DNA of 30,356 bases from Candidatus Bathyarchaeota archaeon (lineage in GTDB: Archaea; Thermoproteota; Bathyarchaeia; Bathyarchaeales; Bathycorpusculaceae), in contig CAVZKL010000021.1 in NCBI GenBank assembly GCA_963775895.1, forward strand, positions 1 to 30,356, in the 5' to 3' direction. This document shows, in pieces, positions 14,608 to 18,477 of the stretch. Both the position numbers and the translations under genes were made by a program. Every line of letters starts with the position of its first letter. The first letter of the stretch is position 1. Under the pieces are notes generated by a model. The model was not told where the DNA came from and did not search any database. It was given only the letters and a program-made list of their open reading frames with translations.

Positions 14608-15165
14608 TCAACGCTCCGCAGCGACCCTCAGTCCGTGAGACTTCAAAGGTTCAATAATTCCTTTTCTACTAATGATTGAGAGCAGCGTGTAACCGAGTCC
14701 TGCGATCACGATGAGACTACTTATCGTTATGCTAACGATCATCGCTCCCCACGCAGGCAAAACATTTAGAACCTGGGGAGACAGTATTCCCGGAAGCACC
14801 CATAGATAACCCCCGACAATCACGCCTATGGGAAAAGCTCCCATTATACACGCAAAGAAGCGATGTCTTCTCAGTAGAAAAATGACGCTCGCCGCAATCA
14901 GATTCGCGATCGGCCCAAAAATAACGTCTTGCGGCGCCAAGAAATAATAAGCGTTCGTGAGGAAGCAACCGACAGTCACGCCACCCACTACCGGAATTCC
15001 AAGGAGCGCGGCCAAAGGAATAAGACAGTCTGCGAGACGCAGTTGGATTGGCCCGTAAATCGTTGGATTACCAATCGAAACCATTTGAATAATGTTCACT
15101 ATCACGTACAAAGCAGCAAAGACACTTGCTAAGACCAGATCTCTACTATCAAATCTCGTTTTCAA
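14608..15165 (-). CDS. queT: QueT-family transporter (queuosine/archaeosine precursor S-component)
   Basis: Hydrophobic; FAALYV, YGPIQLRLAD, GVTVGCFLTN, DVIFG: QueT pattern. Confidence 0.85.
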   Translation of the reverse strand: MKTRFDSRDLVLASVFAALYVIVNIIQMVSIGNPTIYGPIQLRLADCLIPLAALLGIPVVGGVTVGCFLTNAYYFLAPQDVIFGPIANLIAASVIFLLRRHRFFACIMGAFPIGVIVGGYLWVLPGILSPQVLNVLPAWGAMIVSITISSLIVIAGLGYTLLSIISRKGIIEPLKSHGLRVAAER

Positions 15166-15228
15166 TGCCTCCGCAACCCGGGATTTCTAGGGCGGATCGG
15201 GCGGAGGCCCCGCTCACCCGCCAAACAT
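15166..15228 (-). promoter_or_regulatory. Structured GC-rich 5' leader of queT (candidate riboswitch)
   Basis: TTTAATTA TATA-like box at 15256-15249, then a ~60-nt leader with competing stems GGCGG/CCGCC and GCCUCCGC/GCGGAGGC; the second covers GGAGG next to the start codon. Confidence 0.55.
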
Positions 15229-15281
15229 TTAGATCTGAATAGTCTGGCTAATTAAATGTTCCTGAAGAAGCATGCGCTCAG

Positions 15282-16186
15282 TCAACGCTTCACTTCAATA
15301 CTGATATGCTGGAAAACAAAAGCCAAAATCGTCGTCAAGGCAACCAGAAGCGAAGTCACCAAGACCGCCTGTCGCTCGGTTAATGGGTTTCGGTACGTGA
15401 TGAGCGTCAACAGACTCCTCCTGTGGTCCGAAGAAAGTTTATTCCCGTCGAAAGAAAGGGTTGCCTTCCTGCGATAAAAAAAGAAAGTGAGCAAAATCAA
15501 AGCCGAATTGAAAATGTAGGGCAGAAGAGAGATCGCCAAGATGAACTTCAAATCGGATATTATGGCAAACGAAGCCAACGTCGTTCCAATGGCAAACGAT
15601 CCTGTGTTGCCCACAAATATTCGCCCACGAAGATTCAGGGCAGCAAGCACGAGCCAAGTTATCAGAGGCGCGTAAAGCAGGTTGGCGTTTGAAACCGACA
15701 TTGCCATTAGCCCTATCAAGACTATTGCTGGACAAATTGTTTCCAACCCGTTTAGGCCGCCAAGCTGGTTAACAGTGTTGGTAAAAATCGTCACCAACAC
15801 AGGGATCATTATAAAGTAGTAATAGACGCCGAAATCAATCCTCGCCCATTAATGGAATAGTCATGTAAGTTCGCAGTCTCAATCCGTAGGCGAAGGAGCT
15901 GAGCGGAATTGCTGCAATCAAAGGTAGAAAGGCCTTGTAACGCCATTTCAAGTCAACCCAGTCATCGAGCATTCCCATAAAACCGCCGAACAGGATACAC
16001 ACGGCCAATATCAGAGGTGCTGAAGACGCCAGACTCAGAGGCAAAGATGTGCTGTCTGGTTCCTATGACGTTGAAAAAATAGAGAAGGAAGAGATACACG
16101 ACGCTGATCATGACGTAGAACACGCCTAACCCGTTAGAAATGAGAGGCTTGTTTGGCTTGTGCTGGTCGGGGACTTTGGGAAACAA
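15282..16186 (-). CDS. Glycosyltransferase family 4 (MraY/GPT/AglH-like polyprenyl-P HexNAc-1-P transferase), two apparent frameshifts
   Basis: Three ORF pieces join: PDQHKPNKP..G.G, GMLDDWVDL, NTVNQLGGLNGLE, IFVGNTGS; lies directly downstream of aglB. Confidence 0.85.
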
Positions 16187-16198
16187 TGCCCCGTCTCC

Positions 16199-18477
16199 TT
16201 AAGTGCTTGGGTAATCTTGGTTGTATTGGTCCCAGTTGATCTTGTAGAGGCATACTAAAGGCACGAGTCCACCATAATAGTTCTGTGAATCCGTCGATGA
16301 CAGGGTCTCGCCTGAGAAGAACTCTTCCTGGAAGTATGTGGGCTGTGTAACGTTTCCTGCGTCAGGATCCGTTACACCGTTGACTGTGCACCAACGGTCT
16401 TTGCCCCAACTCATCAACTTGTAAACCGTCGAGTTGAGACCAACGTCATTCCAGATCCCATTGGTTGTTGGTGAAGTTCCCGAAGGTTGTCTCGTTCTGC
16501 CAAGAAGAAGCTGGGTCGATGAGACTCTGATTGATGAATCTCTGTTGCGCGTTGCCCGAGATCTTTGCCATCCAAGTCCATTTTCCATTGTCACCGCCCG
16601 CCCAATCAACCCAGCTACCCTGATAGCTGAAAGTGTCAAAGACAAGTACGTATTTCGTGTATTTTGGATCGTACTGTTTGAGCATCTTGAGCGAATTACT
16701 CTCGTTTGCCATGAAAGCAAAACCAGTGTTCTCTATGGCCGTGTTGTTTATGGTCGTGTTGTCTGATAGCGTTGTTACGTTGCCTTCTACCGTTATCCAC
16801 AACCCGTAGTCCCACCAAGCAACAACGACAGTGCTCTGGTCATGCAGATTGGACAGGTAAGTCAACATGTCCAGCCACTCATTCACAGGCTTGCCGGGAA
16901 CTGCTGCAAGACTGCCTGAAGAGATTGTAATTGGCGCGTAAGCTGAACTGATGGCCTCAGGAACCCCACCGTACTGCGGCGAAAACGCCAAGTTGGTCAT
17001 CAAAACAATGAATATCAAGAAAACCGCCGCTCCGCTGAACTCTTTCCCTACGTGTTCCAGTCCGAACTTCTTCTTTACGGTCACTTTAGGCGGTTCTCTA
17101 ATGAGGGACACAAATGGCTTGAGCAGACCCACTATCCCGACACCTGCCAACAGAGCAAACGCTGGAGCCAGCAGATACAGGAGGCGCACCATCGAAGCAG
17201 CAAAATAGGCCGCTGTCAAACCAAAAAGCAACACGAAAAGATTCTTGGTCGTTGGGTTCCTTGCAACGAAGAACAGGCCAACTGCAAAAAAGAGTATGCC
17301 AATTCCGAGGTCGTAATATATTGAACCCCAAGAAGATATTCTGTGTTCCGCCACAGACTCCACGAGCGGGTTAGCACTTGCAAGGAACGGGTTCAGGACT
17401 CTAATAAACTTGCCAGCTATGCTGTTCGTTCGCCCCCGCTGCGAAAATAACAGTGAAGCTACCTACCAAACCGACCAAGATTCCAACAGCCAAGGCAAAC
17501 TTGGCTCTTGCCGAAGCTAAATTACGCAAAACTTCATTCAGACAAAGCAGAAGGAACACGCCTAGAACAGGTAACACTGCGTAGCTTGTAACGTACCGCG
17601 GCGCCAGAAATGGTGCTTGTATCGCCACTAGCAGACCAAGTCCAAACGTCAGGCTGTAGGCGAAGAGTACGCGTCGCGTATACCTTCGTAGCACGAGCAA
17701 AACGAAAACGAAGAGTACGGTCAGATCGAGCAGGTAGTAAGCTGCTCCCCATCCCATCACGGAATAGGCCAAGCAGGCTGCACAGGCCAGCGAGTATTTT
17801 ACTGATGAGCCGATAGATCTTTCTTCGTCAATTGCCCTCGGGAACATCAAAAAGAACAACAAGAAAGAGAACGTGGTCATTTCGGTCTCGAACCAGCCCA
17901 GATTGGTTCTTGATATGAATGACGGTTCTAATGCTAGAAAAATGGCGGCAAGAAAGCCAACGGGTTTCCCTCCGATTTCCTTTCCAATGAAATAGATGAT
18001 CAGCACGCACAACGTTCCTGTTATCACAGGGAGAAATGAACAGAAGGTCATGAAGTCAACGTTAACGCCAAAGAGAGAGAATAGGTCATAAAGAGATGCC
18101 GCGGTAAGCGGGATAGAAGGTAACGTTTCGGTAGCCATGTTGATTCCAGTTGGGAACCAAAAGTGTGTATCAATCCACTGTGTTGGCCAGTAAGGTGATA
18201 ACAGACCATTCTTAACCATGTAGCTGGCAACACTGAATTCAAAGTACGAGTCGAATTCAGACATCTGTAGCTGTCCTGTCCCTAATTGCTCCCAACGAAG
18301 CGGAAGAATTCGGACAGTGAAAGCGACGAAAAGTATGAGAGCTAATGTTGCGAAGGTCAGTATCGCGCTATGGTTGGTTTTGATTCGGAGTTTGCCCAAG
18401 CTTTTCAGACCGTTGGAAAAACGTTCTCTCGAAAAGACGTTGCTGGGCTTCACTTTGGCTTCATCTCTTTTTAACAC
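16199..18477 (-). CDS. aglB: Oligosaccharyltransferase catalytic subunit STT3/AglB, two apparent frameshifts
   Basis: SEFDSY, multiple TM helices, SVAEH, SMVRL, WWDYG, DNTT motifs across ORFs 17401-18477, 16446-17363 and 16199-16720. Confidence 0.93.

Follow-up and report, generated by a model that had tools for sequence, protein, structure and literature searches.

The window, that is, the whole 30,356-nt stretch of bathyarchaeal DNA that was analysed, carries on its minus strand a queT gene, the product of which matches the QueT family of ECF transporter S components (PF06177, E 2.9e-21, 76.7 bits versus a cut-off of 33.7). Ahead of queT lies a leader which had been singled out, from the letters of the window, as a possible archaeal riboswitch. 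The leader occupies a 116-nt intergenic gap, its upstream neighbour at 15282-15809 on the minus strand being a glycosyltransferase family 4 fragment, and its GC content of 0.56-0.57 compares with about 0.39-0.41 beside it in 100-nt windows. When the minus strand is read out from 15228 to 15163, exactly the sequence used in the original prediction is obtained, and all of the elements and pairings then described are found in place (Table 1).

Table 1. Positions of the features of the queT leader, on the window unless a locus is named
Feature	Positions	Strand	Pairing, basis or remark
TATA-like box TTTAATTA	15249..15256	-	sequence; 34 nt from its start to the first base of P1
Leader motif, whole covariance-model match	15164..15225	-	model R1, 73.4 bits, E 1.8e-16
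P1 5' strand GGCGG	15218..15222	-	pairs with 15191-15195
Invariant G-U after P1	15216..15217	-	G and U in 100/100 rows of alignment A3; start of L1
P2 5' strand GAGCGG	15210..15215	-	pairs with 15199-15204, one A.C mismatch
Anti-SD GCCUCCGC	15201..15208	-	spans the P2 loop and P2 3' strand; pairs with 15167-15174
CCG, 3' foot of P2	15198..15200	-	can pair with CGG 15178-15180; C, C and G in 100/100 rows
P1 3' strand CCGCC	15191..15195	-	covariation
A-rich tail CUAGAAAUCC	15181..15190	-	L3 of the predicted pseudoknot fold; invariant AAA and C run
CGG, partner of CCG 15198-15200	15178..15180	-	C in 100, G in 99 and G in 97 of 100 rows
Helix B 3' strand GCGGAGGC	15167..15174	-	contains the Shine-Dalgarno GGAGG (15168-15172)
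Start region	15157..15165	-	TTG 15163-15165, 2 nt past the SD stem; ACG 15157-15159
queT, putatively regulated gene, ECF transporter S component	14608..15165	-	PF06177
~235-aa protein behind the motif	L088:354-1061, L094:1512-2210, L112:360-1070, L119:360-1070; also L211		membrane protein without a Pfam family; L211 from its translation

The TTTAATTA box (15256-15249) is followed 26 nt further on by GGCGG (15222-15218), the first strand of the basal helix P1. Since this TATA-like box starts 34 nt upstream of P1, transcription is predicted to start just before P1, a few nucleotides away, at about 15224-15227. Among 129 homologous leaders, a regular-expression search found a TATA-like hexamer starting 27-37 nt upstream of P1 in 72, and no TATA-like hexamer in 52.

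The original prediction had cautioned that the Shine-Dalgarno sequence (SD) GGAGG lies only 2 nt from the TTG, so that the start of queT might be misassigned. This caution proved justified: the conserved start lies two codons downstream of the TTG, and is an ACG in the window, 8 nt after GGAGG and aligned with the ATG, TTG or GTG of relatives. In 28 leaders compared, the conserved start lies 7-9 nt after the SD and is ATG, GTG or TTG in 21, ACG in four and ATA in three. The seven near-cognate starts are the ACG of the window and of three relatives (L002, L029, L030), and the ATA of L019, L021 and L022; in L002 the neighbourhood of the queT start is free of in-frame ATG, GTG and TTG codons. The ACG of the window is identical across contigs of four runs; these are DNA contigs, a search for RNA runs with the sequence having given none.

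Further upstream on the same strand, the glycosyltransferase ORF (15282-15809) covers only positions 70-159 of a 160-position profile and has a short ORF (15835-16044) just upstream, while the adjacent ORFs 16446-17363 and 17401-18477 resemble the halves of one large membrane protein. The first of these two contains a WWDYG motif, which we take to be typical of the oligosaccharyltransferase AglB/STT3. Both regions, 15282-16044 and 16446-18477, may consist of split genes.

Distribution of the Leader and Downstream Genes

A QueT search of 61 relatives gave a match in 52 genomes. In the 30 best loci, the same leader was found directly upstream of queT 28 times, and in the two others (L025 and L028, in genomes G052 and G060) it lies one gene further upstream than the queT locus searched. 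The gene order in these two is motif, queT, queC and a second queT, the latter without a motif of its own. From the 28 leaders the consensus GGCGGGUGAGUGGG-CCUCC-ACCCGUUCCGCC-AUAGAAA-CCCCGG-N3-5-GGAGGU was derived, and the covariance model R1 was built on them.

In the 1.77-Mb genome to which the window belongs, R1 has a single match, which is the leader itself (15164-15225, minus strand, 73.4 bits). The motif is present in 50 of the 52 relatives with a QueT match (it is absent from G045 and G054) and in one of the nine relatives without such a match (G046), the downstream ORF of which is among the 128 scanned with Pfam as described below. Where a genome has two QueT paralogues (G001, G002, G018, G027, G032) it also has two motifs, and wherever both QueT copies are placed, each motif abuts one of them. 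In G027, one queT copy (L026, on contig C2) is read in two frames, with tblastn pieces 1-115 and 112-181, and its leader has a degraded P2 (GUGAA...CCAACC); it looks like a decaying copy. The second motif and queT of this genome are on contig C10.

R1 was applied to two samples of 151 genomes each. It matched 89 in that of the class and 27 in that of the phylum, where four families outside the class have a match (f44 in 9 of 15 genomes, f56 in 3 of 3, f60 in 2 of 2, and one more). The sample of the Asgard phylum gave matches at E<=0.01 in 12 of 151 genomes, ten of them strong and several inside megabase contigs. A QueT-like ORF stands right behind ten of these 12 matches; of the other loci, L272 looks spurious and L261 stops at a contig end. 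The two marginal matches in 151 genomes of the phylum to which a Methanobacteriota-labelled genome belongs (about 25 bits) have no QueT behind them and are ascribed to chance. A pattern scan of named records was also made, which is uninformative as to bacteria: among the 80 matches listed, 17 passed the model, namely 14 Bathyarchaeia or Bathyarchaeota MAGs, one Methanomethylicota MAG and two Promethearchaeota (Asgard) MAGs, and the 63 that failed were mostly GC-rich bacterial chance matches, with one Methanobacteriota-labelled archaeal record. The original prediction had tied its case to conservation among queT orthologues, and the leader is indeed kept across the orthologues of two archaeal phyla, with covariation.

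Altogether, 129 full-length model matches of 30-86 bits were collected, an antisense match of 21 bits (L083:277-341) being excluded. An ORF lies directly behind the leader in 128 of them (L127 reaches the contig end), and 124 of these 128 ORFs match Pfam QueT at E<=0.001. The four other loci (L088, L094, L112, L119) encode a membrane protein of ~235 aa without a Pfam family, which may be either a QueT that has diverged or a so far unrecognised transporter of deazapurines. A comparison of such an unannotated 236-aa protein with alignment A4 by hhalign gave 98.7%, a figure which is not independent because A4 contains this protein and three of its relatives. The next gene was examined in the 126 loci with at least 400 nt after queT: a same-strand ORF follows within 150 nt in 70, QueC being encoded in 36 of these 70, while the remaining following ORFs are mostly unrelated genes. 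The regulated unit in many relatives is thus a candidate queT-queC operon.

Known RNA families do not account for the leader. With Rfam 15, no family reached its gathering score in the whole window, no match at E<=10 was obtained in 15000-15400, and none at E<=1 in 20 diverse homologous loci. The leader had originally been set apart from preQ1-I, and its comparison with the Rfam preQ1-I, preQ1-II and preQ1-III families points the same way, with no match even at E<=10. Full-text literature searches, judged from their listings, returned no description of an archaeal queT leader. This structured queT leader is real and occurs widely, and it is apparently undescribed.

Helices P1 and P2

Folding of the single sequence gave minimum free energy z-scores of -0.96 for 111 nt, with 38 of 200 shuffles folding as well, and of +0.20 for 66 nt, with 107 of 200 shuffles folding as well. 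Because these scores are not significant, single-sequence folding is uninformative, and the analysis of the helices relies on comparison. Covariation in P1 and P2 was counted on alignment A3 (101 rows, including the antisense match L083:277-341), in which many rows are related, so that cell counts overstate the number of independent events.

The P1 helix GGCGG/CCGCC of the original prediction finds support in compensatory changes, both at its outer pair (GC in 81 rows, AU in 8, GU in 5, UA in 3 and CG in 1) and at its inner pair (GC in 88, CG in 12). P1 is also predicted independently by RNAalifold, which on alignment A6 proposes P1 plus G9.U44 only. The extension of P1 into a long hairpin, here called P2, likewise stands. 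In most leaders P2 is formed by G(A)GUGGG with CCCAC(C)C, with one A.C mismatch, and its variable pair is U-A in 89 rows, C-G in 6 (the group of the window, L099 and L106) and G-C in 1 (L036). Over P1 and P2 together, 98.4% of cells hold standard pairs and 31 cells are changed on both sides; the covariation score of 0.148, versus 0.060 in shuffles, was matched by 0 of 500 shuffles.

These results bear on the explanation according to which the GC-rich leader would have arisen by chance or would belong to a coding region. The single-sequence z-scores are what this explanation has on its side. Against it, no minus-strand ORF of at least 50 aa covers 15166-15281, the length differences between leaders are not multiples of three, and the paired positions carry compensatory changes. 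In addition, the 129 full-length matches stand before the same gene family, and the contig of a related strain (run X1) aligns to the window over 15137-15226 only, diverging on either side. The class-wide matches, the 129 leaders before queT and the P1/P2 covariation together refute this explanation, the probability of which is virtually nil.

The Anti-SD:SD Helix

In the window, GCCUCCGC (15208-15201) pairs over 8 bp with GCGGAGGC (15174-15167), the TTG lying 2 nt beyond. Such complementarity has to be judged with care. Mononucleotide shuffles of the G-rich 3' region give a mean run of 5.7, versus mostly 6-7 observed, and in only 11 of the 129 cases is the real leader better than 95% of its shuffles; this shuffling was therefore rejected as a test, being non-discriminating, since G-rich and C-rich strands pair by composition. 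As the shuffled runs are nearly as long as the observed ones, the case for the helix has to be made from covariation rather than from complementarity alone.

Covariation was counted on alignment A6 (model R2), which was fitted to this helix and hence favours it. On A6, each of the six pairs has rows in which both partners differ (55 cells), which was equalled in 0 of 500 shuffles; after a slide of -1, A6 retains pairing in 89% of the 209 cells counted. An alignment-free test was also performed by swapping partners between leaders: the loop of a leader pairs with its own 3' region at -18.58 kcal/mol versus -16.85 +/- 0.19 kcal/mol for swapped ones, a difference reached in 0 of 2000 permutations. 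Judged from the sequences, the clearest evidence for the helix is provided by leaders in which both strands depart from the usual form and still match: CCUUCC/GGAAGG in L104, L114 and L121, CCACC/GGUGG in L077 and L078, CUCCC/GGGAG in L063 and L065-L067, UUUCCGAC/GUCGGAA in L075 and L076, CCGAC/GUCGG in L133, CCCUCU/AGAGGG in L116, and CUCGCA/UGCGAG in the Asgard locus L177.

In the RNAduplex examples listed, the anti-SD:SD pairs extend through CCG:CGG, and the whole is called helix B hereafter. The CCG:CGG part is beyond the reach of covariation because its sequence never varies. In the leader of the related strain (run X1), which co-occurs with that of the window, positions 15174, 15183 and 15190 are changed and one G is missing at 15208; this is the L002-L006 type, with an anti-SD:SD helix shortened from 8 to 7 bp.

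The hairpin and the stem over the SD had been described as mutually exclusive. This is general: the P2 3' strand gives at least 3 nt to the SD duplex as well in 125 of 128 sequences, so P2 and helix B cannot both be complete. Since each of them covaries, both are under selection. For the window, the two calculated energies are nearly equal, with -19.0 kcal/mol for the P1+P2 hairpin and -18.6 kcal/mol for helix B alone.

Invariant Positions and a Predicted Pseudoknot

Eight unpaired positions (G9, U10, U44, A60-A62, C64 and C66) are invariant in 100 of 100 rows, C65 of the tail being conserved in 98. All eight fall at the junction of P1 and helix B in the predicted fold where both helices coexist, and the invariant G-U 15216-15217 is a candidate for a residue of a binding pocket. 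No role for the tail is seen in the hairpin fold. P1, helix B and the tail are retained by leaders almost devoid of P2 (L133, L270). Both P1 and the anti-SD:SD helix covary next to an A-rich, invariant tail, and their simultaneous formation would make an H-type pseudoknot.

A different pseudoknot had been proposed originally, by pairing of the loop CGGGG with UCCCG of the tail, and this one is disfavoured. The strands pair in 91.6% of cells, but with 0 changes on both sides, and their covariation score of 0.031 is at the shuffle level of 0.032. Leaders that lose the G run (L122, L125, L131) still keep CCCGG. The tail CCCC might instead pair with the P1 5' strand; this was also rejected, given that leaders with GGCGC in P1 retain CCCCGG. 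The k-turn consensus includes tandem G.A pairs. A k-turn or L7Ae site was rejected as well, most leaders having no tandem G.A opposite GUGA.

It has also to be considered that the leader might work without a ligand, through fixed or heat-dependent translation, or through a protein or another RNA bound to the invariant nucleotides. The C-rich loop can indeed sequester the SD without any ligand, complementarity of G-rich with C-rich strands is common by composition, and the small-molecule ligand is itself putative. However, the stems covary across two phyla in which about 15 unpaired positions do not change at all, an aptamer-like pattern, and the association with one transporter family and queC is strict. 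Such a leader is further opposed by the lack of a conserved partner gene in cis, the ORFs after queT being QueC in 36 of 70 cases and mostly unrelated otherwise, and by the GU/GUU internal loop, which as read from the sequence lacks the tandem G.A of a k-turn. We consider a leader working in any of these ways quite unlikely, and one that would bind a small molecule is retained in what follows.

Physiology and Candidate Ligand

The part of PMC5372724 drawn on here places bacterial queT genes behind preQ1 riboswitches and QueT among predicted queuosine-precursor importers, with end-product repression as the rule for the known preQ1 classes before queT. According to the same part, preQ0 serves archaea as the precursor of archaeosine and is believed to be salvaged by them, their arcTGT inserting preQ0 as the free base.

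The host genome encodes a tRNA-guanine transglycosylase (TGT, E 7.6e-54) and, elsewhere, an EcfT-like gene (PF02361, E 2.3e-35). The TGT match (G000:C28:32990-33962) is in two pieces, the longer of which has an in-frame TGA and an in-frame TAG; this could reflect a frameshift, a split gene or an assembly error. No match to QueD was found in this genome, which is 88.8% complete, and QueC gave only partial, N-terminal matches of the PP-loop type (27.9 bits, positions 4-55 of 210). QueC is the preQ0 synthase, with 7-carboxy-7-deazaguanine as its substrate. Because TGT and EcfT are present, QueD is absent and the QueC matches are partial, the gene content of this 88.8%-complete genome is consistent with dependence on an imported, salvaged deazapurine. 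The most likely ligand is preQ0 (7-cyano-7-deazaguanine) or a close 7-deazaguanine.

Proposed Mechanism

The leader shows the general traits of riboswitches, being a conserved cis element with covarying stems, invariant junction nucleotides and coherent regulated genes. The original view of a riboswitch ahead of queT therefore holds as a candidate, the leader being conserved and P1, P2 and the anti-SD:SD helix covarying. In our reading, it is probably a cis-acting translational OFF riboswitch of a new class, with preQ0 or a related 7-deazaguanine as the ligand, controlling queT.

The RNA would begin a few nucleotides before P1 and adopt one of two exclusive folds. In fold 1, P1 would be stacked on P2 in one long hairpin, with the anti-SD locked in P2, the SD free and translation on. 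In fold 2, P1 would be kept while the strand running from the anti-SD to CCG leaves P2 and pairs with CGG...GGAGG as helix B, giving an H-type pseudoknot. Its loops would be L1, made of GUGAG and the G run, L2, which is UU (AU in the window), and the A-rich L3, ending in CCC. The mechanism would thus amount to a strand exchange, in which a C-rich strand quits the P2 hairpin and captures the Shine-Dalgarno sequence in the pseudoknot. Fold 2, which hides the SD, is the putative aptamer: the pseudoknot is taken as the ligand-binding form because the invariant unpaired positions meet there and because the P2-poor leaders keep it. The ligand would bind at the junction of P1 and helix B and stabilise fold 2, so that a plentiful deazapurine would bury the SD and turn translation off; this direction is suggested by the physiology only.

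The same RNA might also answer to another ligand, such as 7-carboxy-7-deazaguanine, preQ1, the archaeosine base, guanine or another purine, perhaps as an ON switch locking fold 1. The near-equal energies of the two folds would allow switching in either direction, and preQ0 was chosen from the association with queT and queC only. A queT-queC operon in a genome without the earlier pathway would also fit import of the QueC substrate, and the ~235-aa proteins without a Pfam family in L088, L094, L112 and L119 are not clearly QueT. Opposed to these alternatives are the invariant tail, which has a role only in the SD-hiding fold 2, and the end-product repression followed by the known preQ1 classes before queT; preQ0 is moreover the free base that arcTGT inserts in archaea (both points from the part of PMC5372724 used above). 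Another ligand or an ON switch is therefore unlikely, and an OFF switch for preQ0 or a related 7-deazaguanine remains the preferred reading.

The most far-reaching version of this reading combines a riboswitch class seen so far in archaea only, the sensing of preQ0, a ligand-driven strand exchange that buries the SD, and ~235-aa proteins acting as deazapurine transporters; the combination has about an even chance of being right. If it is, the class would be widespread in Bathyarchaeia, and present in Methanomethylicota-type and other Thermoproteota as well as in Asgard archaea, and it would mark the unannotated ~235-aa membrane proteins as new deazapurine transporters. To our knowledge, very few riboswitch classes are known from archaea and none is confined to them. 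With 89 of 151 sampled genomes in one class, the motif is abundant, and it extends to the Asgard archaea. It is linked to one pathway only, and its length of about 60 nt puts it within reach of direct biochemistry and structure work. If preQ0 is bound, the leader would represent a fourth architecture for 7-deazaguanine sensing and the first regulatory RNA tied to archaeosine metabolism. It would also show SD-dependent control of translation in a clean form in lineages without a genetic system, and provide a ready marker of deazapurine salvage genes in uncultured archaea.

Comparison with Known preQ1 Riboswitches

The predicted pseudoknot resembles in outline that of preQ1-I (RF00522), which in the part of PMC8752633 drawn on here is of the H-type and consists of a P1 of 5 bp, an A-rich L3 after the P1 3' strand and a second helix containing SD:anti-SD pairs, and which, following the part of PMC5372724 used, is placed before queuosine-precursor genes, transporters included. 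The differences are nevertheless substantial. The leader has no match to the RF00522 model and is found here in archaea only; its L1, of about 10 nt, can form a competing hairpin (P2), and its helix B has 9-12 bp with an internal loop. Its L2 is UU, without the specificity cytidine of preQ1-I: just ahead of the P1 3' strand, U stands in 94 of 100 rows at the first of two positions (A in 5, C in 1) and in 100 of 100 at the second. PreQ1-I measures roughly 34 nt, and the leader, with about 60 nt, is about twice as long.

PreQ1-II (RF01054), also known as the COG4708 motif, is a bacterial family of the Lactobacillales. In the account of PMC8752633, as far as it was drawn on, the SD of preQ1-II is hidden in a pseudoknot helix next to the pocket, upstream of queT/COG4708. 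The leader shares this placement, with 124 of 128 downstream ORFs being QueT and a covarying SD helix. It differs in having no RF01054 match and no hairpin in the 3' loop, the tail from P1 to CCCGG being 6-20 nt long without conserved pairing.

In preQ1-III (RF02680), the same part of PMC8752633 describes an aptamer coupled to a separate SD:anti-SD helix. The leader would resemble it in this coupling and is distinguished from it by the lack of an RF02680 match and by the location of the anti-SD inside the putative aptamer's own hairpin, in competition with P2. Judged from its sequence, the leader is not a member of preQ1-I, and its regulatory logic is that of the preQ1 riboswitches.
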